Positions 33,261 through 56,257 of a DNA stretch of 64,000 nucleotides are shown piece after piece. The position numbers and the translations under genes were made by a program. Every line of letters begins with the position of its first letter. Position 1 is the stretch's first letter. The stretch covers positions 672,001-736,000 of the forward strand of contig OZ219790.1 in the NCBI GenBank assembly GCA_964291215.2. The letters run 5' to 3'. This DNA comes from Alphaproteobacteria bacterium. Its GTDB lineage: Bacteria > Pseudomonadota > Alphaproteobacteria > MPNO01 > UBA830. The notes beneath the pieces are model-generated. The model made no database searches. It had not been told where the DNA came from and worked only from the letters and a program-made list of their open reading frames with translations.

Positions 33261-35687
33261 GGTACTGTAACTTGATGTCTGGAAATTTGTCTGAGGTTTG
33301 CGCTTTGAGGCGTTTCACTGGGGGGCTAGCCCCCCAGTGAAACGCGGCGCCATCGTGCTATCCCATGGAGTTGGAAAAATTCATGGAGGAAGCGAATGGA
33401 CCTGCGACACACTACGACGATTGAGGCCGTTTGGGAACATCTGATCGCAAACGTAGCAACGGATCTGAGGCGGATTTTTGGTCAGCTCTTCGAGCTTGCG
33501 ATGCAAATCGAGCGCGAGCAGCACTTGAAAGCGGGCCACTACGAACGGACACCGGAACGACAGGGCTATGCCAACGGCTATAAGCCCAAACGGATCGACA
33601 CCCCCACTGTTACCGTTCAGGTGCCAAACGGTCACGGGGACGCCCCCCAGTCGCTTGAACGCGGCCAGCGATCTTCTCGCGCCGTGGCCGTAGCCGAGAT
33701 GTACATCAAAGGTGTTTCCACGCGGCAGGATGTAATGCGCGAGTTCGGGAGCCTGTCCTCTTCTCAGGTCAGCCGGGCCACCAGGTTGCTCGATGAAGAA
33801 CTCGCCGCGCAACCGGCCCCTGATGAAATACCTGATCCTGGATGCGCGCTACGAAAAAGCCCGCCATGACGGCGTTGTGCGCGATGTCGCAGTACTCTCG
33901 GCCATCGGAATAGGGGCTGCAGGCACGTTCTGGGGCTCTCTGTGGCGCTCTCCGAGGCCGAGGTCCATTGGAGAGCCTTCCTGGAAAGCTTGCTAGTCAC
34001 CTGAATCTAAAGTTCGTGGCATAAGTTTTGTTCGACGCGGAGACAGAAGCGCTTGACGGCGGCGAGGATTTCGTCGGCTGATTTGGTCCACTTGAAGGGC
34101 TTGGGATTTTCGTTGTGGGTTTCGATGAAGGCCCGGATGTCGGTTTCGAGTTGCAGGGTCGAGCGGTGGACGCCACGCTGCAACTGCTTGCGGGTCAGTT
34201 CGGCGAACCAGCGCTCGACCTGATTGAGCCACGAGGCGGATGTCAGCGTGAAGTGGACATGCCAGTGCGGCCGCCGTGCCAGCCAGACCGCCGCGGTTTT
34301 GTGGGTGGCATAGTTGTCCATGACGATGTGGATGTCGAGGCCGTCCGGGACATTGCAGTCGATCACCTTGAGGAAGTCGAGGAACTCCTTGGCCCGGTGG
34401 CGTCTGTTGCCGATGACCGCGCCGGTGGCGATGTCCAGCGCGGCGAACAGCGAGGTCGTTCCGTTGCGCTTGTAGTCATGGGTGCGCCGCTCAGGGATGC
34501 CGGGCAGCAGGACCGGCTGGGTGCGGGCCTGGCTCTTTTCGTCGACGCAGAGTACCAGCGCGCGATCCGGCAGCGAGAGGTAGAGGCCGACGATGTCGCG
34601 GACCTTGTCGACGAAGTGCGGATCACGAGAGAGCTTGAACGTCTCGGCCCGGTGCGGCTGCAGGCCGAAGGCGCCCCAGATGCGCCAGATCGACGTGTGC
34701 GACAGCCCCGCCTCCTTCGCCATCGAGCGCAGCGACCAGTGGGTCGCGTCCGCAGGCGTCGAGGTGAGCGTGCGCTCGATCACTTCCGCCACCTTCTCGT
34801 CTGCGATGCTCCGCGGGCGTCCCGGCCGGGGCTCGTCCGAAAGCCCCTCGATGCGGTCCTTGACAAAGCGCTTGCGCCACTTGCCGACGGTGTGCTCGTG
34901 CACGCCGATCTCTGCGGCCACCGCCTTGTTGCCAAGCCCGTCCGCGCAGCGCAGGATTATGCGGCAGCGATCCGACAGCGAGCGCGCCACACGGTGGCGG
35001 CGAACCTGCGCCTCCAGATACGACCGTTCCGAATTACTCAAGACCAGCACCGCCAAGGGCCGTCCCATACCGCGTGGCATCGCCATGACCTCCGTGTTCA
35101 CACTCCGACCGCCATCATACAATTATACTTACTTCAGTTCCAGATGACCAGCCCGTGGCCTGCATGGTACGACCTTCATCGTCTCGGATGACCATGCTGG
35201 GCTGAAAGCGGCACGACGCGCGGTGCTGGGCGCGGCGACGTGGCAGCGCTGCCAGTTCCACTTGGCACAAAACGCCGTAGCACGCACCGAACAACGACAT
35301 CAGGAAACGTATTGGAAAACAGCTCGGAGCCATGCGTCCTCACTCCAAACCGCCGAGGCTGAACTGGGCGCCCTCGTGGCCAGCTATCGCGACAAGCATC
35401 CAGGCTTCGCAGACTGGCTGGAAAACAATGCGGGGCTCGCTGTCTTCACCTTGCCCGATGCTCACCACAAGCGTATGCGAACCTCGAACGGCATCGAGCG
35501 ACCGATCCAGCAAGAGCTCAAGCGGCGCACCTCCAAAGTCAGGGGCTTTCCGAACCTCGCCTCGTTGGAGCGCCTTTCAACCGCGGTCCTCATCGACGAA
35601 AAATGGGAAACCAAAACCAAGGCATACATCAAATGGGAACAGCTCGATCAGCTTCACGACAATTTCCAGACATCAGGTTGCGTAATC
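33261..35687 (+). mobile_element. IS256-family element, copy 3, interrupted by IS630
   Basis: Both TIRs present; split at the CTAG site that is intact in copies 1 and 2. Confidence 0.92.
33996..35148 (-). mobile_element. IS630-family element, copy 1 (ORF 34007-35122 open, with apparent in-frame deletions)
   Basis: [40 protein letters not shown]; inserted at TA (right copy reads CA); TIRs gtcacctgaatct / gtcatctggaact. Confidence 0.93.
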
Positions 35688-35845
35688 GGCACTCCGGTTT
35701 CAAAGCATCTCGTGGCTCAATAGCCTGGCCTGCCGCTCCCCAACGCTTCGCCTCACGACGCATGGTTCACGGAGAAAGTGGTGGTTAGCCTCTCTTCCTA
35801 CCGGGACTTGCACCCGGCCACATTCCACCAGTTTGCCTGGCGCAC
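35688..35845 (-). mobile_element. Group II intron A, 5' end (copy 2)
   Basis: GTGCGCCAGG start at 35845, continuing to GCTATTGAGCCACGA...GAGTGCC. Confidence 0.78.
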
Positions 35846-35971
35846 CTAATGTCAGCTTCACCAACAATGCCGGAGAACAGAAGATCAGGATGGCAAAGGT
35901 CAAGATCAAAGTGTCCGGATGCTTCCAAACCTCGCTGCACGCCGAGGCCTGGTGCCAATCTAAACTAACTC
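35846..35971 (+). mobile_element. IS66 transposase C-terminal fragment (continues at 37829-37960)
   Basis: NVSFTNNAGEQKIRMAKVKIKVSGCF...AEAWC; rejoins ctcacctccatgg after the MITE. Confidence 0.82.
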
Positions 35972-36033
35972 GTGCCTGCCCAAAAATGCACGACCGCGCG
36001 ATTCTATTGGCGAAATCGTGATATAGAGGGGAC

Positions 36034-37551
36034 GTATCTACTCACCCCTAGTTGGGTTCTGATTGGTCGTAGTGCTCGTTGATGATGTCTGCGGCTTTTC
36101 CGTCGAGGGCGATCTGGGTTGCGACGTGATGATTGTAGCCAAGTGCGGCCATGGAGGTGAGGTAGCTTGAGCCCCGGCACCATGCTTTTGCGTGGAGCGG
36201 AAGCATCCGGACACCTTGAGCTTTGCCATCCTGATCTTCTGTTCTCCGGCATTGTTGGTGAAGCTGACGTCGGGGTTGTCTATGAAGCGCAGGTTTTCGT
36301 GTTTCACGAGACGTTCGTGCAGGTTGTGCGCGTCGGACTTGCGTCCACGTTTTCCTTTCGGCGGCGGCGGAATGTCGGGCAGTTCCTTGGCGCCCTGATG
36401 GTGCGGTAGCGCTTGCGCCCGGCGTCGTTCAGGGTCTTGGATGCGCTCTTGTTGACCTTGTGGCAGGGAGCAGGCTCTTCATCAGTCGCGCCCAGCGGTA
36501 GCCTCGACGACAAAGGTCAGTTCGCGCAGCAGGTGGCTACCGCACAACTGGTGGCTACACTGGTCATAGCCCATATACGAGGCCCAGGACGCCCTTGTAG
36601 CACGGGCCGATCTCTTGCCTCCCGGCTGCGCTTGCGGTGCGGGAACTTGCACGTCAGGGTCCCACGACATGAAGCCACTTACTGTTGATCCGAAATCGTC
36701 GACATCGGGCGTTGCAGGAGGTGCGCCACGGCGGCCTCCTCCCATGACGCATCGTGAAAGCATAGCTGAGGCCTCGGAGAGCTTGATGCCGGAGATCGCC
36801 TGCACGAGCGCGACAGCACGGCGCAGGGACAGCATTTGGGCGACCAGCAGGTTGATGACGAGGGCCTGGATGCCGTACTGCACGGGATGTTGTCGGGGAA
36901 CCGGCCCCGGGCCTTGCACTTCGGGCATTCCTTGATCTCGGCGCGGCGCTCGACGACCTCGAACACGATGTCATAGAGGACGCGGCGCTCCCGATCGACG
37001 GGGCCGTCGATGTCAGCGCCGCAGGCGTCGCAGGCCGCGACCGTCTCCTCGACGATGATCTTGCGCAGGTTGTCGCCCATATGCTGGTTCGGCTTCGGGC
37101 CGTTGCTCCCGGCACGCTCTTGTCCGTCTGTGACGGCGGCAGACCGGAGTTCCGGCTCGTGCGTGGTCTTCTCCAGAAGGACGACGATGATGATGTCGAG
37201 CAGGATGACGAGGACGCGGATGACGGCCTCTTCCGCCACCTTGCCGGCAGCGCCGCGGTCCTGGCCGCTTCGAACTCCTCGCGCGCCGCCCGTCGCCATC
37301 ACCCGGCCTTGCGCTTCATCAGCGCGCCGCCTCCGAGATGCGTTTCCACATACAGATCATGCGGAGGCTGGAGCCCCGGAAGCAGCTGGCACAGCCCGCT
37401 CGTCGCCTTCGATCCAAAGTAGCTCACTGGCGGTCCCCGTCGTTCTCGATTACCACCACTAAACGAATCGGCCTGCAGTGTCAAATCTCCACAAAAACCC
37501 GTTCGTTGCTCTACCCCGACATCAAGCCGGAACCAGGGGGTGAGCAGTTAC
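36034..37551 (-). mobile_element. IS66-family element (single-transposase ISBst12-like), both ends present, transposase eroded
   Basis: TIRs GTAACTGCTCACCCC / GTATCTACTCACCCC; perfect 8-bp TSD GAGGGGAC; CDACG, CPKC, HQLCGSHLLRELT and FTNNAGEQ fragments. Confidence 0.92.
37299..37427 (-). pseudogene. N-terminal fragment (42 aa) of a Dam-like adenine DNA methyltransferase inside IS66
   Basis: VSYFGSKATSGLCQ...PPHDLYVETHLGGGALMKRK (motif X/I-like). Confidence 0.65.
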
Positions 37552-37828
37552 GAGGGGACGAAGAATCCCGCTTTGGGGCGGGAATTGACCGATCAGACCG
37601 GGAATCCGCCGGATTTTCGGAAAACTTCGCGAGAATTGCCACGCGAAACGTTATCCGCCCGCAGCTGGAATTGGGCCAGGTTGCGCCGGATTCTCGGTTG
37701 GAAGGGACCTGTGCCGCTGCGAATCGGCAGGCCCCCCTTGGAAACGGGGCACCCGGAGGCCCCGAGAGTGGATCAAACCCGAAATTTCGCCGGAGAGTCA
37801 GCCAAAACGGTCATTTCCGCACGGGCAC

Positions 37829-37960
37829 TAACTCACCTCCATGGCCGCACTCGGCTACAACTCACTCGTCGCCATCCAGATCGCACTCGCCGGAAACGCC
37901 GCCGACATGACCAAAAATGCACAACGCCAAACCCACCTCTACGGAGGGGTGAGCAGACAC
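37829..37960 (+). mobile_element. IS66 right end
   Basis: LTSMAALGY...; GGGGTGAGCAGACAC. Confidence 0.82.
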
Positions 37961-38026
37961 CCTTGGTCAACACAATTTCTCCCGGAAACGCCGGCGCACT
38001 GGCGACATGATCTCCATTCGACGCGG

Positions 38027-38362
38027 TCAGACGTGAAATGATTCACCGCACCCGCAGCGGCCCTTCTCGTTAGGGTTGTTGAACACGAATCCCGATTGCA
38101 GCTTGTCGACGACATAGTCCATTTCTGTTCCGATCAGGAACATGAGAGCCTTGGAATCGACATAGATCCGCACCCCCTTATCATCGACAACCTCGTCTAG
38201 GGGAGCCTTCTCCGCGGCAAACGCCATCTCGTAAGCCATGCCCGAGCATCCGCCCGTGCGAATTCCGATCCGGAGTCCGTCAGCCGGCTCCGAGCGGGCC
38301 GCCAGAAGGTGCCGGACGCGCTCTGCCGCCGCGTCCGTCAGGGTCATTACCGTGGATGCCAT
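38027..38362 (-). CDS. sufA: A-type Fe-S carrier (SufA/IscA)
   Basis: GGCSG, CGCGESF. Confidence 0.92.
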   Translation of the reverse strand: MASTVMTLTDAAAERVRHLLAARSEPADGLRIGIRTGGCSGMAYEMAFAAEKAPLDEVVDDKGVRIYVDSKALMFLIGTEMDYVVDKLQSGFVFNNPNEKGRCGCGESFHV

Positions 38363-38414
38363 TCACAACCTCCTGCATTTCAAGCCGCAACACATCACGT
38401 CCCTGTCCGCCCGA

Positions 38415-38783
38415 CTAGAGAAAGCCGAGTTCGAGCCGCGCCGCCTCCGACATCATCTCCGGCGTCCACGGCGGCTCCCAAGTCAGTTCGAGCGAAACCG
38501 CGTCCACGCCATCCACCTCGCCGACGCGGGTCTTGACCTGTTCGGGAAGAATTTCCGCAACCGGACAGTGCGGCGTCGTCAAGGTCATCACGAGATCGAC
38601 CTTGCCGGCGGGTGACACGTCGACATCGTAGATCAACCCCAGTTCGTAGACATTGACCGGAATCTCGGGATCATAGCATTCCCTGATCGCGGCAATGACC
38701 TGCTCCTTCAGCGCCTCTGCATCCGCAGCATCCTCTGCGCGGCCAGCAGCGCCGTCTGGTCCTGCCGGAAACCATTCCATCAT
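38415..38783 (-). CDS. sufT: DUF59/SufT Fe-S assembly protein
   Basis: DPEIPVNVYELGLIY, TTPHCPVA, EPPW. Confidence 0.88.
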   Translation of the reverse strand: MMEWFPAGPDGAAGRAEDAADAEALKEQVIAAIRECYDPEIPVNVYELGLIYDVDVSPAGKVDLVMTLTTPHCPVAEILPEQVKTRVGEVDGVDAVSLELTWEPPWTPEMMSEAARLELGFL

Positions 38784-38791
38784 CTCGTGCC

Positions 38792-39241
38792 CTACTCCGT
38801 CGTGACTTCTTCGCCGCTACCGTTCAGCGCCGCGCAGAAGGTGTGCCAGGCCAGCGTTGCGCACTTGACGCGGGTTGGAAATTTCCGCACCCCCGAAAGC
38901 GCCGCAAGCTCTCCCAACCCGTCGCCGTCGATGGCGTCCTTGGAGGTGAGACCGGTCACGAACCGAGCCGACACATCGGACGCCTCTGCGACCGTCTTGC
39001 CCTTGAGCGCTTCGGTCATCATCGATGCCGACGCGATCGAGATTGCACAGCCGCGCGCGTCGAAACGGACATCGGCAATGTTCCCCTCCTCGACCCGTAC
39101 ATGCACCATTACGCGGTCGCCACACAGCGGATTGTTGCCATGCGCCTCTCCGGTCGCATCCTTGAGCACGCCGCTGTTGCGTGGCGAGCGGTTGTGTTCG
39201 AGGATAATCTCCTGATAGAGGTCCTGGAGATCTGCATTCAT
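38792..39241 (-). CDS. sufU: SufU sulfur-transfer/scaffold protein
   Basis: LYQEIILEH, NPLCGD, GCAIS, RVKCATLAW. Confidence 0.92.
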   Translation of the reverse strand: MNADLQDLYQEIILEHNRSPRNSGVLKDATGEAHGNNPLCGDRVMVHVRVEEGNIADVRFDARGCAISIASASMMTEALKGKTVAEASDVSARFVTGLTSKDAIDGDGLGELAALSGVRKFPTRVKCATLAWHTFCAALNGSGEEVTTE

Positions 39242-40497
39242 GAGAACATCTCCGTAACTCGGCTTATGCCGCGAACCAGAGTGTCAATCTCGGCACGCGT
39301 ATTGTAGAGGCCGAACGATGCGCGGACCGTCGCCGCCACGCCGAACCGGTCCATAAGCGGCTGGGCGCAGTGGTGGCCGGTCCGCACCGCGATACCCTCG
39401 CAATCGAGAATGGTCCCGACATCGTGCGGATGAATGTCGCGCACGTTGAAGGACACAATCGCAGCCCTGTCGGCCGGCGTTCCGACGAGCTCGACGGAGT
39501 TCAGCGCGGAAAGCTGTTCCGTGGCGTACTCGACCAGGTCGCTCTCGTGATCCGCCACAGCCTCTTGGCTGAGCTTGTTCAGGTACTCGATCGCGGCCCC
39601 GAGCCCGATCGCACCCGAGATGTCCGGCGTTCCGGCCTCGAACTTGAACGGCAGATCGGCATATGTCGTCCCCTCAAAGGTCACGCGATCAATCATCTCG
39701 CCACCGGACTGGTAGGGCGGCATGGCGCGGAGAAGCTCCTCCTTGCCGTAGAGCAACCCGATCCCGCTCGGACCATAGAGCTTGTGGCCCGAAAAAACAT
39801 AGAAGTCGGCATCAAGAGCACGCACGTCGATGGCCATGTGCGGCGCTGCCTGACAGCCGTCGATCAGCGCCAGGGCACCCGCATCGTGTGCGCTGCGAAT
39901 CACCCTGTCGACCGGAACCACCGTGCCGAGAGCATTCGAGACATGGGTCAACGCGACCATCCGCGTGCACGGAGACAGAAGGCTCTCGTATTCCTCGAAC
40001 AGGAAATTACCGCAGTCGTCGATGGGGGCAACCTTGATCACGGCACCAGTTTGCTCGGCAATGATCTGCCACGGCACGATATTCGAGTGGTGCTCCAGAA
40101 CGGAGAGAATAATCTCATCGCCCGCGACAAGATTGGCGCGTCCCCACGTAGCCGCTACCAAGTTGATGCCCTCGGTCGCTCCGCGAACGAAGATCATTTC
40201 TGAGGCGCTTGCCGCGTTGACAAAGGCCCGCGCCGTCTCGCGCGCCTCCTCCATCGCGTTGGTGGCCAACTGGCTCATGGTGTGGACACCTCGATGCACG
40301 TTGGCATAGGCCGCCTTGTAGGTTTCCGACACCTTCTCGATCACCGCCGACGGTTTCTGGGCGCTGGCACCGTTATCGAGATAGACGAGTGGCTTTCCGT
40401 GAACCTGCTGCGCCAGAATCGGAAAATCCCTGCGGACATCCTCGATCGGATAGGCGCCGTTGCCGGGACCGTTCATGCCGCGGTTCCTCCCATCCAT
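39238..40497 (-). CDS. sufS: Cysteine desulfurase SufS
   Basis: YLDNGASAQKP, SGHK, RTGHHCA. Confidence 0.95.
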   Translation of the reverse strand: MDGRNRGMNGPGNGAYPIEDVRRDFPILAQQVHGKPLVYLDNGASAQKPSAVIEKVSETYKAAYANVHRGVHTMSQLATNAMEEARETARAFVNAASASEMIFVRGATEGINLVAATWGRANLVAGDEIILSVLEHHSNIVPWQIIAEQTGAVIKVAPIDDCGNFLFEEYESLLSPCTRMVALTHVSNALGTVVPVDRVIRSAHDAGALALIDGCQAAPHMAIDVRALDADFYVFSGHKLYGPSGIGLLYGKEELLRAMPPYQSGGEMIDRVTFEGTTYADLPFKFEAGTPDISGAIGLGAAIEYLNKLSQEAVADHESDLVEYATEQLSALNSVELVGTPADRAAIVSFNVRDIHPHDVGTILDCEGIAVRTGHHCAQPLMDRFGVAATVRASFGLYNTRAEIDTLVRGISRVTEMFS

Positions 40498-41762
40498 TGT
40501 TCGACCGCCTGCTGCAGATGGTCCCGCGCGCTGCCTTCCGGCGCGCCTTCGACGACTTCAGCCACAAAGGCGCGAATCAGCAGGTTCCGCGCCTCAGCGG
40601 GCGGTACGCCGCGGCTGATGAGATAGAACATCGCGTTCCGGTCGAGCTCTCCAACTGTTGCTCCGTGCGCACACTTCACGTCATCAGCAAGAATGCGCAG
40701 TTCGGGCTTGCTGTCGGCACGGGCGCCCCGGGACAGCAGGAGATTGCGGTTCGATTGCTGAGAGTTCGTCCCGATGGCACCAGTGCCGACCGCTACTCCG
40801 CCTTGAAACACCGAGCGGGCGCGGTCATCAAGCACGTTGCGGAAGATCTGGTTGCTCTCGGCGTGACCGGCGCAGTGGTTGATTTCGGTGGTGTTGTCGC
40901 CGTGTTGGCGTCCGCGCAGAAGCATGCCGCCTCGGATGTCGCAAGCGGCATAGGCGTCTTCGAGGACAACCTTTATTTCGTTGCGCGACAGCGCGGCACC
41001 GGTTGCCAAAACAGCCGCGGAGTAGGCCGCGTCACGGTCCAGCCGGGCCTCGGTCAGCGCCGTGTGATATGCGCCCGGCGCTTCCGCCTGCAGCTTGACA
41101 TGCGAAAGATGCGCCCCGCGACTAACCCGGACCTCGGTCACGGTATTGGTCCAGGAACGTGCCGAACCGCTGCCGACAAAAGTCTCGACTACCGTTGTCC
41201 GGCTTGCCTCACCGGCCACGATCACATTGCGCGAATGGACGGCGATGTCCGATCCCGTTTCGCAGACCACATGCATGACCTGAACCGGCCGTTCGAGCAC
41301 CGCGCCATCCTCCAGCCGCAACACGAGCCCTTCGCGCATGAACGCGGTATTGAGGGCTGCCAACGGCGCGCCGTCGACGGCGCCGGGTTGCAACCCGTCC
41401 GGATCCTCCACGGCGGCGGAAAGCGGTGCCAACCTTACGCCTTCGGGTAGTCGGCCAATGTGTGAAGCGGCCGTGTCGAAGCGGCCGTGGACGATGACGA
41501 TGCGATGGGCGTCGGCCACGAAGAAATCGCGCCACGGCGACGTGTCGACTTCCACCGTTGCAGCCAAGGGATCGAAATCCGTGCGCGCGAGGCGGTCGAG
41601 GCTGGTGTATTTCCAGGCCTCATCGCACCGCGTCGGAAACCCCGAGCGGAAGAACGCCTGGAGTGCGCTCTCCCGCAGAGTCCCGAGAGCGGGTCCCGGA
41701 AGGCACCCGCGAGCCTTCTCGAAATGCGCGCATAGCGCCTCGGTCTGTACACCGTGAGCCAT
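40473..41762 (-). CDS. sufD: Fe-S cluster assembly protein SufD
   Basis: EAWKYT, KPELRILADDVKCAHGATVG. Confidence 0.93.
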   Translation of the reverse strand: MAHGVQTEALCAHFEKARGCLPGPALGTLRESALQAFFRSGFPTRCDEAWKYTSLDRLARTDFDPLAATVEVDTSPWRDFFVADAHRIVIVHGRFDTAASHIGRLPEGVRLAPLSAAVEDPDGLQPGAVDGAPLAALNTAFMREGLVLRLEDGAVLERPVQVMHVVCETGSDIAVHSRNVIVAGEASRTTVVETFVGSGSARSWTNTVTEVRVSRGAHLSHVKLQAEAPGAYHTALTEARLDRDAAYSAAVLATGAALSRNEIKVVLEDAYAACDIRGGMLLRGRQHGDNTTEINHCAGHAESNQIFRNVLDDRARSVFQGGVAVGTGAIGTNSQQSNRNLLLSRGARADSKPELRILADDVKCAHGATVGELDRNAMFYLISRGVPPAEARNLLIRAFVAEVVEGAPEGSARDHLQQAVEQWMGGTAA

Positions 41763-41778
41763 TGTTCGCGCGTCCGTC

Positions 41779-42549
<771 letters not shown>

Positions 42550-42559
42550 ACAATCACCC

Positions 42560-44002
<1,443 letters not shown>

Positions 44003-44015
44003 CTCGGATCTCCGG

Positions 44016-44793: not shown

Positions 44794-44849
44794 CAAACAC
44801 TTACATCTCGTCTGAACATGGACATGATGAAATTTTGCACAAAGTCGAG

Positions 44850-45129: not shown

Positions 45130-45183
45130 GGTACTGTAACTTGATGTCTGGAAATTTGTCTGAGGTTTGCGCTTTGAGGCGTC
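45130..45183 (+). mobile_element. IS256 left end only
   Basis: Identical to 33261-33313; stops where the internal palindrome begins. Confidence 0.85.
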
Positions 45184-45521
45184 AACCGCCAAGAAACAGA
45201 CGAGGCTGCACTACGGCGCGTTTCTGCCATCCTTTGCGCCTGCTTGTGACGATAACCCCGTCCCCCGCTGTTGCGCTTGATCTCCCGGAAAATTGTTGAT
45301 CGGTCACGGCCCAGCTGCCGAGCAATCGCACCTTGTGAAAGACCGCTTTTCTGTAACGCCTCAATCTGACATCGCTCTTCGTAGGTGACGGTAGCCTTTG
45401 GACATGAACAACCTCCCTTCATCTTGTACAGGAACTCTCGCCGCTACCGCTCCGCAACATCATGCGTCTAAAAACACATGGTCACAGCCCATCACGTGTT
45501 GCACTTCACTATGGAACGGGG
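45184..45521 (-). mobile_element. IS30-family left end and N-terminal HTH remnant
   Basis: MSKGYRH/TYEERCQIEAL...IARQLGRDRSTIFREIKRN; TGTTGCACTT-type end near 45497-45520. Confidence 0.8.
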
Positions 45522-45522
45522 G

Positions 45523-45557
45523 CTTGCATTTCTGGCATATCATGCCAGAAATGCAAG
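45523..45557. promoter_or_regulatory. Perfect 16-bp inverted repeat (operator-like) directly before the ATPase ATG
   Basis: CTTGCATTTCTGGCAT atc ATGCCAGAAATGCAAG. Confidence 0.6.
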
Positions 45558-45558
45558 G

Positions 45559-46906: not shown

Positions 46907-46945
46907 TGAAGGCAGTTTTCCGCCCGGTAGCGGCCTCCCGACCGC

Positions 46946-48100
46946 CTATCTCGCCCAGAACTGAGGCCCGGCCCGGAGGTCTTCTGTATCGCGGTGGACA
47001 TGGACGCTGATCATCAGCCCGATCCCAAGCATCACCGTCAGCATCGCCGTGCCACCGTAAGAGATCAGGGGCAAGGGAATGCCAACCACCGGCATCAGCC
47101 CCATGACCATAGCAATGTTGATGAAAACATAGATGAACAGCATGACGGAAATGCCCAGCGAGAGCACGCGTCCAAAATGGTTCCGCGAGCGCAACGCGAT
47201 GACGATTCCGAAGGCGATGATGATGCCATATAGCGTGATCAGTAAAAGGCCGCCCGCCATGCCGAACTCCTCGGCAAGCATGGCAAAGATGAAATCCGTA
47301 TGAATCTCGGGCAGGAACCGCAACTGGCTCTGAGAGCCCTGAAGGAATCCCTTGCCGTCGAAACCGCCAGCACCAAGCGCGATCTTTGACTGAAGGATGT
47401 GGTATCCGGCGCCAAGAGCGTCATGCTCGGGATCGAGGAAGGAGAGAATTCGTTGCTGCTGATAGGGTCTGAGCAGGCTCCAAACAACCGGCACAGCAGC
47501 GCCGGCAACAGCCACCAGCACGCCGAATACTCTGAACCTCACCCCAACACCGAGAAAAACCGCCAAGCCGATCAGCAGGAGGAAGATAGCAGTTCCGAGA
47601 TCGGGTTGTCTGAGCACCAGCGCCGTCGGGACGGCAATCAGTACGCCTGGAATCAGCAGTTTGGACACCCTGAGTACTTGTTCGGCAGGAAGTCTGTAAA
47701 AATACCGCGCAAGGACCAGAACGAGGCCGATCTTCATCAGTTCCGAGGGCTGCACGCGGAAAAATACCAAGTCGATCCATCGGCGGGCCCCCATGCCTGA
47801 CGCCCCGACGACTTCCACCGCGATCAGCAGCAAGAGCAGCGCAGCATAGATCAGGTACGCGTGGCGCCACCAGAAGCGGATATCGATGACCGCGACCAGT
47901 AGCAGGATAACAAGACAGACACCGAACCGGATGAGATGCGGTTTGGCCCACGGGGTCCACGAACCCCTGGCTGCCGAATACAGCATCACCGTTCCGATGG
48001 CCGCGACAGCGCATACGACCAGGACCAGCCCCCAGTTCACGCGGATGAACTTGCCTGCGGACACACCGCCGTCAAAGGGCAGGACGGACTCCCTCCTCAC
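46946..48100 (-). CDS. rodA: Rod shape-determining protein RodA
   Basis: GARRWI, QPSELMK, QPDLGTA, HTDFIF, LPLISYGG. Confidence 0.95.
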   Translation of the reverse strand: MRRESVLPFDGGVSAGKFIRVNWGLVLVVCAVAAIGTVMLYSAARGSWTPWAKPHLIRFGVCLVILLLVAVIDIRFWWRHAYLIYAALLLLLIAVEVVGASGMGARRWIDLVFFRVQPSELMKIGLVLVLARYFYRLPAEQVLRVSKLLIPGVLIAVPTALVLRQPDLGTAIFLLLIGLAVFLGVGVRFRVFGVLVAVAGAAVPVVWSLLRPYQQQRILSFLDPEHDALGAGYHILQSKIALGAGGFDGKGFLQGSQSQLRFLPEIHTDFIFAMLAEEFGMAGGLLLITLYGIIIAFGIVIALRSRNHFGRVLSLGISVMLFIYVFINIAMVMGLMPVVGIPLPLISYGGTAMLTVMLGIGLMISVHVHRDTEDLRAGPQFWAR

Positions 48101-48103
48101 GGT

Positions 48104-49969
48104 TCAGATATCCTCGCGGTCGCGCGGCACATCAGGCAGCGGACCCTGGAGCCGAAGCGCTCGCCGCTTCTGGGCGGCAAGAAGAATTTCCCGTGCGATC
48201 GGCGCCGCCACGGCGGAACCGCTGCCGCCATGCTCGACGATCACGGAAACCGCGTATTTCGGGTGGTCCGATGGCGCATATCCGACAAAGAGGGAGTGGT
48301 CGCGCTCCTCCCAAGGTCGGTCCTTGTTCTTGCGAACACCCGTCGCGCGTTCGCTCCTCGTTATGCGCCGGACCTGCGATGTTCCCGTCTTGCCCGACAT
48401 CTCCATACCCTTCTCGCGAATGCGGGCGCGATAGGCGGTTCCGCCCCGCGCGTTGCAGACGCGGAACATCGCCTTGCGAACGACCGACAGCGAAGCCGAG
48501 GAAATGCCCAGTTTCTCGAAATCGGATTTCCAGGTTTCCTCTTGAGGCAGCCGTAGCAGGCGAGGAGTCACGGCCTCGTGCGCATTAGCAATGCGTGCAG
48601 TCATCACAGCAAGTTGAAGCGGCGTCGCCAGCAAATATCCTTGGCCGATGCCGTAGTTGAAGGTTTCGCCGCGATACCACGGCTCGTCCCTTTTCTTCTT
48701 CTTCCACGCCGTAGACGGAACAATGCCCTGCCTCTCGCCAGCCAGCCCGATCCCGGTCCGCACGCCGAATCCGAGCCGCCTTGCCATCGCCGCAATCCGG
48801 TCGGGTCCCAAGCGATTCGCCAGATCATAGAAATAGACATCGCAGGAGTTCTGGATCGCTGCCACCATATCCATCCAGCTGTGTCCCCCCTTCTTCCAGC
48901 AGTGAAAACGGTGACGGCCGAGGTCAACATGGCCGCGGCAGAACACTCGATGCTCCTTGCCGACAATCCCACCCTCCAGAGCCGCCAGCGCGACCACCAT
49001 CTTGAAGGTAGATCCCGGTGCGTAAGCCCCTGCAATCGTCCGGTCGACCAACGGCCTCATGGGATCGTTGACGAGTTGTTCCCAAGCCCCGGGCGAAAGG
49101 CCGCTGACAAACTCGTTCGGGTCATATCCGGGGACAGATGCTTGCACGAGAACCTCTCCGTTCTCGATATCCATCAGCACCGCGGCGGCGTTTCTTTGCT
49201 TGCTCAGCCGCTCGGTCGCCAGGAGCTGAAGATCGAGGTCAAGGGCGATGCGGACATCTGCTCCAGACCGGGGCTCCCGCCTCCCGAGTTCGCGAATGAC
49301 CCGCCCCAGGGAATTGACCTCGACCTCACTGTTCCCCGGCTGGCCGCGCAGCGACCGCTCGTAAATTGCCTCGATCCCACGCTTGCCTGTCAGGAGCTGC
49401 GACAACATGAGAGAGGGAGTGGCACGACGTTGGCGTTCGGACACCACAGACACGTAGCCAACCAAGTGGGAAGTACTCTTCCCGTAGGGGTAATTCCTGG
49501 TCTCCCCCAACTCGACCGAGACCCCCGACAGGTCGGGGGCGTTGACTTCGATCTTCGCGACATCCGTCCAGTCGAGACTCTCATATACTGTCACCGAACC
49601 ATGGCCGTAATGGTGCTGGATCTCACGCAATACCCGCCTCCGCGCATCGTCGCCGACCGAGACCAGAGAACCAAGACGCTCCAGTGTCCTCATGACATCG
49701 ACGGATCCGTAGGCAGCAAGCTTTATCCGATACAGTTCGAGGTTCCGTGCCAGCGGGCGGCCGTAGCGGTCGACAATTAAGCCGCGGGACGGCGCCAGCA
49801 GGCGCACGCTGATTCGGTTTTCCCTGGCAAGGGTCCGGAACCTCTCCGATTCGACGATCTGGAGCTGATACATGCGGCCCACCAGGACCGTGAGCAGCGC
49901 AGCTTTGCCGGCTCCCAGGATCGCAGCCCGGCGCGACAGCAACCTGAAACGCTGGCCGTCGCTACGCAT
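48104..49969 (-). CDS. mrdA: Penicillin-binding protein 2
   Basis: STFK, SCD, KTGT motifs; mre operon context. Confidence 0.95.
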   Translation of the reverse strand: MRSDGQRFRLLSRRAAILGAGKAALLTVLVGRMYQLQIVESERFRTLARENRISVRLLAPSRGLIVDRYGRPLARNLELYRIKLAAYGSVDVMRTLERLGSLVSVGDDARRRVLREIQHHYGHGSVTVYESLDWTDVAKIEVNAPDLSGVSVELGETRNYPYGKSTSHLVGYVSVVSERQRRATPSLMLSQLLTGKRGIEAIYERSLRGQPGNSEVEVNSLGRVIRELGRREPRSGADVRIALDLDLQLLATERLSKQRNAAAVLMDIENGEVLVQASVPGYDPNEFVSGLSPGAWEQLVNDPMRPLVDRTIAGAYAPGSTFKMVVALAALEGGIVGKEHRVFCRGHVDLGRHRFHCWKKGGHSWMDMVAAIQNSCDVYFYDLANRLGPDRIAAMARRLGFGVRTGIGLAGERQGIVPSTAWKKKKRDEPWYRGETFNYGIGQGYLLATPLQLAVMTARIANAHEAVTPRLLRLPQEETWKSDFEKLGISSASLSVVRKAMFRVCNARGGTAYRARIREKGMEMSGKTGTSQVRRITRSERATGVRKNKDRPWEERDHSLFVGYAPSDHPKYAVSVIVEHGGSGSAVAAPIAREILLAAQKRRALRLQGPLPDVPRDREDI

Positions 49970-50483
49970 TTCCGACGAGCCATCTTGTTTGCAGCCGGGA
50001 CAGTAGCCAGACAAGCAGGGGAAACGCGCCAGCCGTCAGGAGCACATGAAAGAGCACCGGAGAAGGGTCGATCAGATTCAGGTTCAGGATCATCGCGATC
50101 AACCATGTCAGCAGCGCCGCGAGAACGGCGACGAGCACGAAGCAGAACCACCGGCCGGCGTAATTCCTCGAACGCAGGAAAAGCTGCTGTGATCCGATCA
50201 GGCCGTACACGACCAGCATGACAAGCGCGTTCAGGCCGATCGGTGTGCCGGTCATGAGGTCCTGCCACAGGCCGAGCGCAAAAGCAGCCACTGGCGAAAA
50301 GAGATCGGGCCGGGAAACCGACCAGTAAAAGACGCATATCAGCCCCGCATTGACCGCGATCTGCCCGTAGCCGGGAACCAACAGCGGCACCGCCGCCAAC
50401 AGCACCAGTGCCAGACTAATCAGGACGGGCAGGGATTGCCGGAACAGGAGAAAAAGGTAACGGGGAAACCCCTGGATCATCAC
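49962..50483 (-). CDS. mreD: Rod shape-determining protein MreD
   Basis: FYWSVSRPD, GLWQDL; operon position. Confidence 0.88.
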   Translation of the reverse strand: MMIQGFPRYLFLLFRQSLPVLISLALVLLAAVPLLVPGYGQIAVNAGLICVFYWSVSRPDLFSPVAAFALGLWQDLMTGTPIGLNALVMLVVYGLIGSQQLFLRSRNYAGRWFCFVLVAVLAALLTWLIAMILNLNLIDPSPVLFHVLLTAGAFPLLVWLLSRLQTRWLVGNA

Positions 50484-51376
50484 CGGTCGGAATGCCCGGT
50501 GTTGCGGACGGCACCCGTTCCGATCCGGTCCCGACCGGCAATATTCCTGTCATAGGCGGTCAGGACGCGGACGTAGTCAAGCCGGTCGAGGTCGGCGAGC
50601 GGTCGAATCCGAACTTCTCCGTCGTCGATCGCAACCACCTCGCCGACCGCAAGATCGGGCGGGAACATGTTGCCGTGCCCGGACGTGATGATGCGGTCTC
50701 CAGGCCGGAGGCGCGTCCGCAGAGAGCGGAACTTCAATGACAGAGTCGCGCTGTTGTCGCCCGCAAGTATCGCAAGCACGCCGTTGCGCTGCACGACCAC
50801 CGGCACCCGCGAATTGAGGTCGGTAATCAGCAGCACCCGGGCAGACCTGTGGCCGGTCTCGATGACGCGTCCAATCAGGCCTCTGGCATTGACGACGGCG
50901 TCTCCCTTGGAAAGGCCAGCTTCGTCGCCCGCATTGGCCAGCACGGAACGCACGAAGATGCCCGTCGAATCACTGACCACCCGAACAGCGACTGACGCGA
51001 GCTCGTTTCCGGGCCGGTATTTCACCAGTTCGCGCAGGGCGTTGTTTTCCTTCGTCAGGTTCAGCGCCAACTGGTGCCATTCGCTCAGGCGCAGATTCTG
51101 TTCGCGAAGGCGAGCGTTCTCCTCGTAGATGGTCAGGAAAGCTCCGAGATCGTTCACCGCGACCGACAGCAGACCGATCGGTTCGGAGACGATTTCCATT
51201 ATGGGGGCGATGACGTCGCTCATTCCGGCGCGCGCGCGTTCCACCAACCCCGTCTGGGCCCGACCCAGCAGCAGCAGCAGCACCGCAACCAGACACAACA
51301 ACGCAAAGTCCCAGCGCCGGGCCGGACTGCGCCGGGATGTCCCGTTCCTCGCCGCTGCTCTGGAAAAAGATTTCAA
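50480..51376 (-). CDS. mreC: Rod shape-determining protein MreC
   Basis: Transmembrane segment, coiled coil ENARL, GLIGRV, TSG..FPP. Confidence 0.92.
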   Translation of the reverse strand: MKSFSRAAARNGTSRRSPARRWDFALLCLVAVLLLLLGRAQTGLVERARAGMSDVIAPIMEIVSEPIGLLSVAVNDLGAFLTIYEENARLREQNLRLSEWHQLALNLTKENNALRELVKYRPGNELASVAVRVVSDSTGIFVRSVLANAGDEAGLSKGDAVVNARGLIGRVIETGHRSARVLLITDLNSRVPVVVQRNGVLAILAGDNSATLSLKFRSLRTRLRPGDRIITSGHGNMFPPDLAVGEVVAIDDGEVRIRPLADLDRLDYVRVLTAYDRNIAGRDRIGTGAVRNTGHSDR

Positions 51377-51492
51377 CGGTTCTCAATTCCGCTCACAGTT
51401 GGTGTCAAGCCGGTTTCCCGGCCGGCGGAGCAAGCCCCCGGTCCGAACGAGAGCTGGTTCGGAAACGTGCAGCGGCACAGCGCCGGTCATTT

Positions 51493-52548
<1,056 letters not shown>

Positions 52549-52596
52549 CTACCTACCCAACCCTGCGCAAGCGCCGCGAAGACCTCCCCGTGGCTG

Positions 52597-54153
52597 TCAG
52601 GCACTCAACGCGCTGGGAGCGGTCTTTTCCCTCTTTATCAGCAGCTTGTTCAACGCATTCACGTAAGCGCGCGCCGAAGCGACCAGCGTGTCGGTATCCG
52701 CGCCCTGACCATTGACCGTCTTGCCGTTTTCCGCGAGGCGGACCGTGACCTCCGCCTGGGCATCGGTTCCCTCGGTCACGGCACTCACCTGGTAGAGTTG
52801 CAGCCGGGCGCGGTTTCCGGTCAGCACCTTGACCGCATTGAAGGTGGCGTCAACGGGGCCGTCTCCCGTCGATGTCGTCGCGCGGCGCTCGCCGTCGACT
52901 TCCAGCTCAAGCTCGGCGGTCTGGGGTCCGCGGGATCCGCAAACAACCTGCAGGGATACGAAACGTATGCGGTCATTGCCACGCACGACCTCATCGTCAA
53001 CCAGCGCGACGATGTCCTCGTCGAATATCTCGCGCTTCTTGTCAGCCAGCTCCTTGAACCGCCGGAAGGCATCCTGAAACGCGTTGTCGCCGAGTTCGTA
53101 GCCAAGTTCAATCAGCTTGTCCCTGAACGCGTGCCGTCCCGACAGCTTGCCCATCACGATCCTGGATTGAGCCAGCCCGACGGAAGCCGGCGTCATGATC
53201 TCGTACGTGCTGGCATTCTTGAGGACGCCGTCCTGATGGATGCCCGATTCATGGGCAAACGCATTGGCTCCAACGATCGCCTTGTTGGGCTGCACGTTGA
53301 AACCGGTGATCGTCGAGACGAGGCGGGAGGCCCTGGTGATGACCTCGGTCCTGACATTCGTTCTGTAAGGCATCGCGTCGCCCCTGGTGCGGAGCGCCAT
53401 GACGATTTCCTCGAGCGCCGCGTTCCCGGCGCGCTCCCCTATGCCGTTGATCGTGCATTCGACCTGTCGCGCCCCGGCCGCCACGCCAGCCAGAGAATTA
53501 GCGACCGCCAGTCCGAGATCATTGTGGCAGTGGGTCGAGAAGATGGCCTTGTCGCTGTTGGGCACCCGTTCGATGAGCATGCGGATCAGATTGCCGAACT
53601 CCTCGGGCACGGAGTAGCCAACGGTGTCGGGAACATTGATGCAGGTGGCGCCGGCCTTGATGGCGGCTTCAACGCAGCGGCACAGGAAATCATGATCGGA
53701 CCGCGTTCCGTCCTCGGGCGACCAGTCGACTTCGTCGGTGAAATTCCGGGCATGCGTAACGCTGTCGACAACATTGCGATAAACTTCCTCGCGCTCCATC
53801 TGGAGCTTGTGCTTCATGTGCAGCGGGCTGGTGGCGATGAAGGTATGGATGCGCGGTCGCACCGCTGGCTTTACCGCCTCGGCTGCGCGTTCGATATCAC
53901 GGCGCCCCGAACGCGCAAGACCGCATACCGCCGATTCCCGCACCAGCTTCGCGACCTCGTGCACGGCCTCGAAATCGCCATTCGACGAGATCGGAAAGCC
54001 TGCCTCGATCACGTCGACGCCCATGTCCTCAAGCGTCTCGGCGATCGCGATCTTCTCCTCGATGTTCATTGCCGCGCCGGGCGACTGCTCCCCGTCACGC
54101 AATGTGGTATCGAAGATGTAGACCACATCCGAATCGGAGTTGGCACCCATCAT
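52597..54153 (-). CDS. leuA: 2-isopropylmalate synthase
   Basis: [25 protein letters not shown], regulatory domain GDGPVDA. Confidence 0.96.
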
Positions 54154-55210
54154 ACTGCTCCTTCCTGGCCGCCAGCCGGAAACCCGGCGCCCGAATTCCG
54201 CCTGCGAACCTCTCCGCACCTCCCGGCCCGCTACGGCGACGAGACCGACGAATGCGCACTCCCAAGTACCGGTTGTACACCAGACCCAGCGTTTCTCTAC
54301 CAGTATTCTCTCTTGCCATGAAGCAAGATAAACTGCTCTCTATTACACTGTTTTCAAAGCCTGCGCAAAGTTTTTTTCAGTCCCGCCGCCGTTTCCGGCC
54401 GCTGACATGAACGAAAAGCCTGCATGGTCAACGGCACGTCTTGGTTATCACGCGACGGACACACAGGGCCGCTTTCCGCCAACAGCCTCACGCCTCCCTG
54501 CATCAGGATGGCCCCGTTCACGCCCCCGGGATACACCCGCCGCGCAACACTTCCGGCTCCTCTGCGATCCCCGGCCACCCCGGCCTCAGCATCGCGCCAG
54601 ACATGCCGGACGCGCGCAGGCGCCTCAGAACCGCCGCATCACACCACGGGTGAACTGGAACATTTTGATATTATCAAGAAACAAACCACTTCATATAGAT
54701 ATTTGAAACCCATCCACGATCGCCGACCTCTCGGTCACCGTTCGCGATGCCGGACGGCCGGGGTCACGGTTGGCCTCCTGGCGTACGGAGTAACGGGCCG
54801 AGCCCATGCGACCAGCCCTGGACGGAAACCGGAGACGAGCCGATGTCCTGTAGCCGCGATCGCCACCGCCGCCCACAACCCGTGGTCCGGAGGCGTCAGC
54901 ACTGCCCGCCTTGCCGGCGAGCTGCGCAGGCAGGCGGGAAGTCGCGAATCGGCAGCGTCGGCAATTTGCGGCTCTCCGGCCTCATCCCCGGGCCCGTCGC
55001 GGCACCAGTAACTCGCGCGAGCCCCGGTTCCGCGAACGGCCCCGCGACAACCGCGAATCTGGCTACCAACACCAGATGATGATGCACGGACACGTTTGCG
55101 AGCAAATCACGCCCGCATCTTGCGGTGGCCGGACCTTCCCGCCCGGCCAGCCGGTCTCCGCACATTCAGGTCAAGGGGCGTGCCGGAAAAACCACGACGA
55201 TCCCATGCTA

Positions 55211-56257
55211 ATCACCTGAATCTAAAGTTCGTGGCATAAGTTTTGTTCGACGCGGAGACAGAAGCGCTTGACGGCGGCGAGGATTTCGTCGGCTGATTTG
55301 GTCCACTTGAAGGGCTTGGGATTTTCGTTGTGGGTTGAAGGCCCGGATGTCGGTTTCGAGTTGCAAGGTCGAGCGGCCACGTTGCAACTGCTTGCGGGTC
55401 AGTTCGGCGAACCAGCGCTCGACCTGCACGAGGCGGATGTCGGCGTGAAGTGGACGTGCCAGTGCGGCCGCCGAACCAGCCAGACCGCGGCGGTCTTGTG
55501 GGTGGCGTAGTTGTCCATGACGATGTCGAGGCCGTCCGGAACATTGCGGTCGATCACCTTGAGGAAGTCGAGGAACTCCTTGGCCCGGTGGCGTCTGTTG
55601 CCGATGACCGCGCCGGTGGCGACGCGGCGAACAGCGAGGTCGTTCCGTTGCGCTTGTAGTCATGGGTGCGCCGCTCAGGGATGCCGGGCAGCAGGACCGG
55701 CTGGGTGCGGGCCTGGCTCTTTTCGTCGACGCCCAGCGCGCGATCCGGCGGCGAGAGGATGTCGCGGACCTTATCGACGAAGTGCGGATCACGGGAGAGC
55801 TTGAACGTCTCGGCCCGGTGCAGGCCGAAGGCGCCCCAGATGCGCCAGATCGACGTCAGCCCCGCCTCCTTCGCCATCGAGCGCAGCGACCAGTGGGTCG
55901 CGGGCGTCGAGGTGAGCGTGCGCTCGATCACTTCCGCCACCTTCTCGTCCGCGATGCTCCGCGGGCGTCCCGGCTCAGCCCCTCGATGCGGTCCTTGACA
56001 AAGCGCTTGCGCCACTTGCCGACGGTGTGCACGCCGATCTCTGCGGCCACCGCCTTGTTGCCAAGCCCGTCCGCGCAACGCAGGATTATGCGGCCGACAG
56101 CGAGCGCGCCACACGGTGGCGGCGAACCTGCGCCTCCAGATACGACCGATCGCTCAAGACCAGCACCGCCAAGGGCCGTCCCGTGGCATCGCCATGACCT
56201 CCGTGTTCACACTCCGACCGCCATCATACAATCATACTTACTTCAGTTCCAGATGAC
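55211..56257 (-). mobile_element. IS630-family element, copy 2, frameshifted
   Basis: Colinear with 33996-35148; TA duplication on both sides; 106 bp shorter. Confidence 0.93.

Follow-up and report, generated by a model that had tools for sequence, protein, structure and literature searches.

How do the copies of a mobile element come to lack many short pieces of DNA, nearly all of one size? The question is raised by two IS630-family copies in a 64,000-nt stretch of an alphaproteobacterial genome, here called the window. A first-pass annotation had counted 16 gaps between them, 106 bp in all and every one in copy 2, with sizes of 5, 6, 7 and 12 nt and spared termini of about 125 and 75 bp. 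Realignment gives the same 16 gaps and 106 nt, all in copy 2, along with 20 substitutions; 125 nt before the first gap and 75 nt after the last are ungapped. One 13-nt stretch can be aligned as 9+4, 13 or 6+7. The earlier sizes are kept, since comparison with the family reference gives only 5-, 6-, 7- and 12-nt deletions in copy 2.

Repeats in the window

The repeat copies of the window with such losses are the following.

33996..35148, minus strand: IS630-family copy 1, 1153 nt, inside an IS256 copy
55211..56257, minus strand: IS630-family copy 2, 1047 nt
28829..30009, plus strand: IS256-family copy (F3) with 12 deletions of 5-7 nt, each found in 12-94 copies
31330..32525, minus strand: IS256-family copy (F3) with 12 deletions of 5-7 nt
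33331..33996, plus strand: half of the IS256 copy that IS630 copy 1 interrupts, with 7 deletions of 5-7 nt
35150..35686, plus strand: remaining half of the interrupted IS256 copy, with two 6-nt deletions
32605..33254, minus strand: 650-nt fragment of a group II intron RT family (F8), with 20 deletions of 5-7 nt
36035..37438, minus strand: IS66-family copy (F0) with 23 deletions of 5-7 nt, each found in 15-172 copies
30010..30308: fragment of a family F41 repeat, with three 6-nt deletions common to 8-9 other copies
45174..45522: fragment of a family F9 repeat, for which no Pfam name was found, with two 5-nt deletions

The transposase frame of IS630 copy 1 is open at 34007-35122 and encodes HTH and DDE_3. 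Losses had been suspected in this copy too, and five 6-nt deletions of its own are found against the family reference, each common to four or five other copies. Copy 2 differs from the reference by 21 deletions (one of 5 nt, fourteen of 6, five of 7 and one of 12) and 7 substitutions. Relative to copy 1, its junctions lie at 55335, 55375, 55426, 55521, 55622, 55732, 55757, 55818, 55856, 55902, 55975, 56026, 56093, 56148 and 56181. All deletions of both copies recur in other copies of the genome. The losses proposed for the IS256 copies, the IS66 copy and the intron fragment likewise proved real, at 2-23 deletions each. Copy 2 is missing at the same place in the sister genome G001 and in a contig of sequencing run X3. 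When the IS630 reference is aligned with its G001 homologue over 1,033 nt, the gaps are two compensating 2-nt ones.

It is very hard to credit that the deletions are an artefact of assembly or polishing. A 240-nt short-read contig of run X1, of multi-copy depth and possibly from the source sample itself, equals 55911-56150 with no differences and no gaps, and crosses the junctions at 55975, 56026 and 56093. The long alleles at the first three junctions are seen in contigs of X1-X3, so that both alleles are present in short-read data. In genes, 39 of 51 gaps of 5-7 nt have an in-frame size, a bias for which selection accounts and assembly error would not. Finally, an independent genome of the same genus (G002) shows the pattern and another (G003) does not. 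What speaks for an artefact is that this evidence consists of contigs, not raw reads, and that the best run may be the source sample.

Deletions across the genome

Repeats make up 35% of the genome, and the survey covered 36 families with 1,213 copies and 1.25 Mb. Polarisation by majority consensus gave equal numbers of "insertions" and deletions, since the bases are already gone from most copies. It was replaced by reference sequences gap-filled from other copies, a procedure that favours deletion calls and at which frame length fell in five families. The direction of the 5-7-nt changes is loss. Restoring the missing bases lengthens the longest frame by 50 or more codons in 11 of the 36 families, and only 11 of 899 apparent 5-7-nt insertions are tandem duplications.

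The genome-wide 5-7-nt peak expected in the first-pass annotation is present across the 36 families and, weakly, in single-copy DNA. Distinct deletions in the families number 247, 535 and 301 at 5, 6 and 7 nt, and 41-44 at each size from 2 to 4 nt. Counted per copy, there are 15,517 deletions of 5-7 nt versus 819 of 1-3 nt. The copies have lost 137 kb from their 1.25 Mb, in pieces of 5-21 nt, with a median load of 12 deletions per kb per full copy. In 14 of 15 large families no full copy has fewer than three deletions; in the young 11-copy family F32, none of the full copies has one of 5-7 nt. Element ends are spared (40 alleles within 75 nt of reference ends, 114 expected), which can also reflect selection for mobilisation in trans.

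Load is nearly unrelated to private SNPs (rho 0.08 overall, signs mixed). In the spacing of deletions, distances below 10 nt are under-represented and those of 10-24 nt over-represented, in part through the alignment, and there is otherwise no phasing. For a transposase target-site footprint there is no sign in the minority of families whose boundaries could be called: these gave no 5-7-nt duplication. Copies with common flanks are mostly nested within other repeats.

Single-copy DNA

In 599 kb of single-copy DNA compared with G001, 102 gaps of 5-7 nt belong to this lineage versus 10 to G001. Those in the window are listed below.

2769..2803: two junctions, 6 and 7 nt absent relative to G001
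14451..14452: 6 nt of G001 absent
54718..54719: 7 nt of G001 absent
58152..58153: 6 nt of G001 absent, at the end of a TPP-enzyme gene
60041..60042: 7 nt of G001 absent

Sixteen such gaps lie in 85.5 kb of 63 broken genes (0.19 per kb), a crude set in which the time of gene death is uncertain, and 32 lie in 48.8 kb of intergenic DNA. At 0.14-0.66 per kb, single-copy DNA has a 20- to 80-fold lower load than the repeats, which bear about 60 times the load of the broken genes. The deletions are purged from genes unless in frame. Proximity to a repeat does not raise the number of events, and the peak persists far from repeats. Of the mutator proposed earlier, the weak single-copy excess, purged from genes, therefore stands, while its load is too low to explain the repeats; the 20-80-fold difference implies that something acts on repeats. 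Since single-copy events hardly carry the sequence motif of the repeats (about 0.1 bit), their seeding may be a different process.

Sharing of alleles between copies

Although modal sizes vary among sites (73, 147 and 108 at 5, 6 and 7 nt), 90% or more of the carriers have one and the same allele at 286 of 345 sites. Of 129 singleton alleles, only 23 are at fresh sites, compared with 94 fresh-site singletons of 1-3 nt. With per-copy counts so high, this scarcity means that origin is rare and spread is not. The first-pass annotation had envisaged a dedicated process comparable to RIP, or cleavage with trimming and joining. Repeats are indeed hit 20-80 times harder; the hits are not independent, as such processes would make them, because fresh-site singletons are few and sites mostly have one allele. 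Staggered cleavage may still be the seeding step, both ends showing some preference.

Mean allele frequency is 0.33-0.39 at 5-7 nt versus 0.06-0.11 at 1-4 nt, with the jump between 4 and 5 nt. There are only 17-25 alleles at each size from 2 to 4 nt, so a threshold set by MutS rests on small numbers.

An example of sharing across subfamilies is provided by two of the intron, A (5 copies) and B (49 copies), which are 9.3% apart. Their fixed differences in the RT frame are 52 synonymous and 26 non-synonymous, yet they have 32 alleles in common, 13 of them frameshifting. The subfamilies thus diverged as working genes, and the sharing postdates their split. A copies hold 11-22 of 34 common B deletions and the B allele at 29 of 504 diagnostic SNP cells. 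Of 43 A alleles, 32 are identical to those of B, to which a held-out sequence model gives 7% of its weight.

Copies with a shared deletion retain their own SNPs 3-11 nt away. The SNP of the donor subfamily is no commoner in carriers of a shared deletion than in non-carriers (26 of 351 and 13 of 187 at 1-5 nt, fewer further out). This lack of co-transfer is expected both if a loop alone is excised and if deletions recur independently, and the usual proof of templating is gone. Repeat copies are mosaics, in which 20 nt suffice for SNP linkage (r2) to drop from 0.6 to about 0.1. Close to a nested insertion, at 20-75 nt, common alleles reach 0.77 of the expected level, versus 0.91-0.94 further off; the test is weak (paired p = 0.11, from 39 of the 48 distinct breakpoints; 0.80 across all 97 split copies).

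Models for the spread of deletions

The model preferred here, with a probability of roughly one half, is that a weak genome-wide mutator seeds alleles, which pairing between copies then spreads through excision of a bulge invisible to MutS. In a seeding step, microhomology would help a nick-and-trim or slip event to take out 5-7 nt at sites of weak preference; its products would be purged from working genes unless in frame. Next, an intact and a deleted copy would pair in a RecA-type reaction, and the extra 5-7 nt of the longer strand would stand out as a loop. MutS binds only loops of up to four nucleotides (PMC8235422). The longer loop would escape it, and a candidate enzyme would cut it from the recipient's own strand and seal the gap. 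Because the loop is excised from that strand, the deletion alone would be copied, and in one direction. Occasional misregistered loops would leave rare variants clustered on common sites. As a result, newly arrived intact elements would acquire the deletions of their family, and whole families would die together.

The simplest alternative is a general mutator acting alone, with repeats as old neutral DNA and sharing due to descent from dead copies mobilised in trans plus unbiased shuffling. It draws on the peak far from repeats, the crude broken-gene set and the absence of IS630 copy 2 from a strain 0.8% away, by which deleted copies may move. It is quite unlikely: an unbiased ratio of 5-7-nt to 1-3-nt deletions of about 0.3-1 would be expected, not 19, and loads of 0.19 and 12 per kb would have to be reconciled. 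Lightly deleted copies also hold different, non-nested subsets of the common alleles, and the frameshifting alleles common to A and B, which split as working genes, largely refute it. An unlikely alternative, analogous to RIP, is that pairing triggers deletions afresh at sites fixed by sequence, so that copies would converge without copying. The missing SNP co-transfer fits, as does the number of alleles per kb (18-45), which shows no increase with copy number, as though sites were in limited supply. So do a two-copy element in which one copy has 31 gaps and 42 substitutions with no donor in the present genome, the overlap of 8 of 11 non-identical A alleles with B sites, and the 106 of 129 singletons that touch a shared allele (51 expected). 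The deletion sites themselves have a weak anchor, R-T-(not G), at one of their ends and some microhomology, which at least a third of events lack. A sharp ATC serves as anchor in G002 (20 of 65 versus 1.9), again in favour of recurrence. However, local sequence explains about 1 bit (held-out models 0.6-1.15 bits) where about 5 are needed, sites persist despite SNPs 3-8 nt away, and each site has a single exact size. No hairpin, RNA-structure or other folding signal was found in 506 alleles, so structure was rejected as the site determinant, and the full copies of F32, free of 5-7-nt deletions, also count against recurrence. Site choice may exceed what was modelled, given the sharp ATC, the correlation of allele frequency with motif score (rho 0.31) and a flexible model with an AUC of 0.82 on few examples.

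The preferred spread by loop excision could also be replaced by spread begun with a break. A loosely specific nuclease would cut the intact allele, repair would use a copy without the site, deleted alleles would be immune, and rare direct joining would seed them. The rise of allele frequency with motif score suits this, as do the preference at both ends, with correlated scores (r 0.20), sizes of 247:535:301 that fit two ends each wobbling by one base, and an association of SNPs 1-4 nt from a site with the intact allele. It remains unlikely: donor repair should co-convert the nearest SNPs and does not, very many breaks per genome would be required, Ku and ATP-dependent ligase were not found, and in both genomes modelled the fit is better with an asymmetric than with a symmetric end model.

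Relatives and gene content

Positive (this genome, G000, and G002) and negative (G003, and G001, of which only 1.9 kb of repeats were comparable) genomes lie in one genus, which makes the process directly testable. In G004, 14 pairs gave nine 6-nt gaps, mostly within one tandem-repeat gene. The end joining by Ku/LigD and the pAgo cleavage suggested earlier find no counterpart: Ku, ATP-dependent ligase (PF02735, PF01068) and Piwi (PF02171) were found in none of the five genomes, where divergent short pAgos could be missed. Cas involvement fares no better, none of 116 CRISPR spacers matching the genome. RecT and TopIB were likewise found in none of the five, and NucS gave only a weak match, in G002.

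A mismatch-repair mutator was rejected, the mutS and mutL frames being open and over cut-off here and 1-nt gaps numbering 177 versus 135 in G001. RecA, RuvC, PolA, RecJ and XseA are also intact. None of these seven, nor Cas1, GIY-YIG or tyrosine recombinases, distinguishes positives from negatives; IMS occurs in four of five genomes and DndC in G002 and G004. Screening for atypical genes returned 700 candidates, spread over 307 islands.

One source of the seeding nick, compatible with the preferred model, would be the Ssp phosphorothioate system, through the SspB nickase or breakage at modified sites. SspB is a nickase, and Ssp-type systems leave some of their short motifs unmodified (PMC8092258, PMC12914056). 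In G000, sspABCD is intact and accompanied by dndB, with no effector recognised, and G002 has the same subtype (SspB 53%, SspC 58%, SspD 76%). The DUF4007 match is absent from G003 and G004, and SspB is found in 3 of 41 relatives. The link is nevertheless improbable: sspC is split in G002, G001 has an intact Ssp of another subtype and no deletion excess, and the comparison covers two positive and one clear negative genome over 18 gene families. The printed motif is CpsCA, a literature search for ApsTC found nothing, and nicking leaves the 5-7-nt loss unexplained.

A broader reading, offered tentatively, is a horizontally patchy anti-repeat system, whether a loop-excising nuclease/ligase or an Ssp-linked nickase. 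Damaged copies would serve as heritable memory that drives deletions through homologues, a deletion-based counterpart of RIP sterilising IS and intron families.

Relation to known systems

In RIP of fungi, fresh C-to-T changes arise in each copy in a dinucleotide context. There, as here, mutation strikes repeats far more than single-copy DNA and disables transposon families as a whole. The changes here are instead deletions present as exact shared alleles, and C-to-T changes have no strong context bias (rate 0.12-0.22 over all 16 contexts).

Deletion-biased nonallelic gene conversion is known from Drosophila and primates, where all sizes taken together show a 3.4-fold bias (Assis and Kondrashov 2012, PMC3280953). 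Length differences between paralogs are resolved there to the short allele, much faster than by mutation, and neutral repeats shrink cooperatively. The bias to the short allele and the 32 derived alleles of earlier-diverged paralogs are seen here too, in a bacterium, in a 5-7-nt window, with deletions crossing subfamilies about eight times more than SNPs and no donor tract of flanking SNPs.

In a study of deletional bias and A-EJ, small deletions, 43% with microhomology, occur in pseudogenes of bacterial symbionts, most of which lack Ku/LigD (Danneels et al. 2018, PMC6054270). Their sizes follow a power law with an excess of 3n, whereas here deletions of 5 and of 7 nt are five to seven times as frequent as those of 3 nt, and it is in repeats that the load is concentrated. 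SPDIR (10.1101/2023.11.22.568220) also has ectopic strands templating short changes at limited homology; its microindels are rare, measure 3-100 bp, vary in sequence and are suppressed by RecA, RecJ and ExoX, whereas here RecA, RecJ and XseA are intact and the changes are pure deletions of one size class. Group II intron-like RTs perform Ku-independent MMEJ joining (10.1101/2022.03.14.484287), and the genome holds dozens of intron RT copies. These are themselves eroded, with 1 of 56 candidates passing at 1e-12; RT frames are longer in G001, which has no deletion excess; and at least a third of events lack the microhomology.

An open-access literature search found no description of deletions spreading in this way through repeats. 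Deletion-only copying, if true, would be a new mutational force under which family-wide transposon death is predictable. It bears on how exploding IS loads are halted and on the origin of the deletional bias of bacteria. For annotation, the majority consensus of such a repeat family is itself broken.

Deletions in the repeat families

The genome under study (G000), that of an uncultured alphaproteobacterium, comprises 6.15 Mb in two contigs, C1 and C2, and 35% of it consists of repeats of at least 200 nt. The sponge-metagenome run X4 holds a relative that is ~95-96% identical. The window contains two IS630 copies, copy 1 at 33996-35148 (1153 nt) and copy 2 at 55211-56257 (1047 nt). As the first-pass annotation described, 16 segments summing to 106 nt are absent, every one of them from copy 2. 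The alignment shows 20 substitutions besides these gaps, and the ends are gap-free over 125 and 75 nt. A 13-nt stretch, ambiguous pairwise, resolves as 6+7 against the family reference. The junctions were checked on assembled contigs: a short-read one from run X1, possibly the source sample, is identical to 55911-56150 and spans three copy 2 junctions, and the long alleles are present in contigs from three runs. By contig depths, 56258-56430, immediately after copy 2, is a short, very high-copy repeat. Further on, 56624-58300 differs from a contig of run X3 by 41 substitutions, the gap count being 12.

References were made for 36 repeat families by filling gaps from other copies. Majority consensus sequences, being broken themselves, were dropped as references. 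After gap filling, the longest frame had gained 50 or more codons in 11 families and lost 20 or more in 5. Only 11 of 899 apparent insertions are tandem duplications, and the IS630 reference is consistent with the homologue in the sister genome, G001.

The 5-7 nt size class seen in the window recurs as a genome-wide peak. Measured against the gap-filled references, 1,213 copies, which total 1.25 Mb and of which 770 are full length, carry 247, 535 and 301 distinct deletions of 5, 6 and 7 nt, flanked by 191, 41, 44 and 43 of 1 to 4 nt and 89 of 8 nt, with a further peak at 12 nt (68). For deletions of 5-7 nt the median load of a full copy is 12 per kb, and in 14 of the 15 families having at least 14 full copies every full copy carries three or more deletions. 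A young IS66-like family of 11 copies (F32) has zero 5-7 nt deletions in its full copies. Among the families to which Pfam gives a name are IS66, IS256, IS630 and ISAzo13, besides DruA-domain transposases, the RT of a group II intron and an autotransporter gene; for several others the Pfam search returned no name.

Four abundant insertion-sequence families (L184, L186, L187, L195) encode a DruA (DUF4338) domain, joined in two of them to a DDE_Tnp_1-associated domain. In the IS66 family F0, 39 copies are interrupted at an identical point, reference position ~252, mostly by the intron family F8. This point may be a homing site, or the whole a composite element.

Losses in single-copy DNA

Comparison with G001 covered 917 kb (~18% of G001), of which 599 kb aligned, 7% diverged. 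Segments of 5, 6 and 7 nt are missing 16, 64 and 22 times from G000, and 1, 7 and 2 times from G001. Within the first 424 kb, intergenic DNA (48.8 kb) accounts for 32 such losses and genes (375 kb) for 51, of which 39 are 6 nt long; these single-copy losses show no proximity to repeats. By crude gene calls and unpolarised lesions, the 63 broken genes, defined by at least two lesions, span 85.5 kb and have 16 losses in all; in the 348 intact genes, six-nt deletions number 23 and three-nt deletions 12. Microhomology of 3 nt or more is present at 34 of 83 single-copy events (7.4 expected) and absent at 28.

Because the losses in G000 far outnumber those in G001 yet stay below the repeat load, a weak mutator specific to the lineage exists. 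A general mutator of ~6 nt, which the first-pass annotation had offered, is partly borne out in single-copy DNA, but the load there is 20-80 times below that of the repeats.

Sharing of alleles between copies

Repeat alleles are shared rather than independent. One allele occurs in at least 90% of carriers at 286 of 345 sites, and 106 of 129 singleton deletions overlap a shared allele (51 expected). Only 23 of the 129 lie at fresh sites; these 23, all of 5-7 nt, compare with 94 singleton deletions of 1-3 nt in 900 kb. Mean allele frequency is 0.06-0.11 at 1-4 nt (102, 17, 25 and 24 alleles) and 0.33-0.39 at 5-7 nt.

The copies are fine mosaics in which SNP linkage decays over ~20 nt. The two intron subfamilies, A and B, are 9.3% apart, with third positions making up 54 of 78 coding differences. 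They have 32 alleles in common, 13 of them frameshifting, and carriers retain their own SNPs 3-11 nt away. The subfamily border is crossed by 11-22 of 34 deletions versus 29 of 504 SNPs. Among seven families with subfamilies, donor SNPs are not in excess in carriers, even at 1-5 nt. Descent and ordinary tract conversion are ruled out. Sharing without SNP co-transfer therefore leaves either transfer of the deletion alone or recurrence at fixed sites.

Choice of site

Three features together give held-out models 0.56-0.66 bits per event: a weak R-T-(not G)-N-R anchor at one end, a still weaker preference at the opposite end, and microhomology. A boosted-tree model reaches 1.15 bits (AUC 0.82); its weight on subfamily B alleles is 7%, whereas 74% of A alleles fall there. 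No folding signal was found at deletion sites. Element ends are spared (40 alleles within 75 nt of ends, 114 expected). Near nested insertions, common alleles stand at 0.77 of expectation, below the 0.91-0.94 seen farther off, a difference not significant in a paired test (p 0.11).

Related genomes

In the congener G002 (~77% identical), 62 non-independent repeat pairs over 292 kb show 90, 126 and 25 gaps of 5, 6 and 7 nt, and 96, 30, 47 and 11 of 1 to 4 nt. The congener G003 (180 kb, 32 pairs) has 1,391 mismatches, its only gaps being fourteen of 1 nt. In G004, 14 pairs gave nine 6-nt gaps, most of them within a single tandem-repeat gene, and the G001 repeats compared amount to 1.9 kb. The deletion pattern is real, large and present in at least two species. 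It is patchy within the genus, because G001 is far closer to G000 than G002 is. The G002 anchor is ATC at 20 of 65 (1.9 expected), worth 1.21 bits; microhomology adds no gain to this model.

Tandem 1.6-kb gene repeats in G002 (L169, L165), whose layout is not that of insertion sequences, bear deletions of this kind, 5-6 nt long, with one unit far more affected than the rest. Six IS630 copies in G003 (L157-L162) are 0-2% apart and have incompatible SNP patterns with zero gaps, so copies may be shuffled there without the deletion process.

Possible mechanisms

The favoured model, to which we give a probability of about one half, is that deletions are seeded and then spread. Rare losses of 5-7 nt would arise anywhere. 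When copies pair, the extra bases of the intact copy would loop out, too large for MutS, and a putative activity would cut the loop from the recipient strand. MutS binds loops of up to four nucleotides, according to PMC8235422. A single loop-excision step could explain the deletion direction, the exact sizes, the threshold between 4 and 5 nt and the absent SNP co-transfer.

Transfer between copies has evidence against it: a two-copy element has 31 gaps in one copy and no donor remaining, and alleles per kb do not increase with copy number. Recurrence at fixed sites, one of the two readings left by the sharing data, is unlikely in the form of recurrence triggered by pairing. A drive initiated by breaks is less likely again. 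Less likely still is a general mutator acting alone.

Among known systems, RIP has a comparable outcome for repeats; the G000 pattern reaches that outcome but fails a defining RIP test. It likewise fails a defining test of NHEJ, of mismatch-repair mutators and of SPDIR (bioRxiv 10.1101/2023.11.22.568220). Deletion-biased nonallelic gene conversion, as outlined in PMC3280953, works similarly, yet here too a defining test is failed. Ordinary pseudogene spectra (PMC6054270) are unlike that of G000. No prior description of such a deletion pattern was found in the open-access literature.

Candidate genes

A check for lost repair genes had been suggested; across the five genomes of the genus, MutS, MutL, PolA, RecJ, XseA, RecA and RuvC are intact. 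Searches of the five for Ku, Piwi, ATP-dependent ligase, RecT and TopIB gave no match. NucS was not found in G000. G000 has CRISPR arrays of two types (36-37-nt repeats) at C1:574247-581180 and C2:2068487-2069543, each near a cas1, and 0 of 116 spacers match G000.

Of the 18 gene families compared, one separates the positive genomes. It is an SspABCD subtype present intact in G000, at about 876-883 kb of C1, and with a split sspC in G002:

L203:8510-16859 (C1 about 874.5-882.9 kb), G000: sspA-sspBCD operon, then an unnamed 184-aa frame and dndB
L205:9522-19026, G002: sspB, split sspC and sspD, then a helicase, an HSP90-like ATPase and a PLD-like protein

No SspE or SspFGH was recognised near the G000 operon; G001 has a different Ssp subtype, with sspFGH. 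The motif printed for Ssp is CpsCA, and SspABCD is therefore a lead only.

Tyrosine recombinase matches number 61 in G000 and 56 in G001, many as triplets, and 24, 8 and 7 in the congeners G002, G003 and G004.
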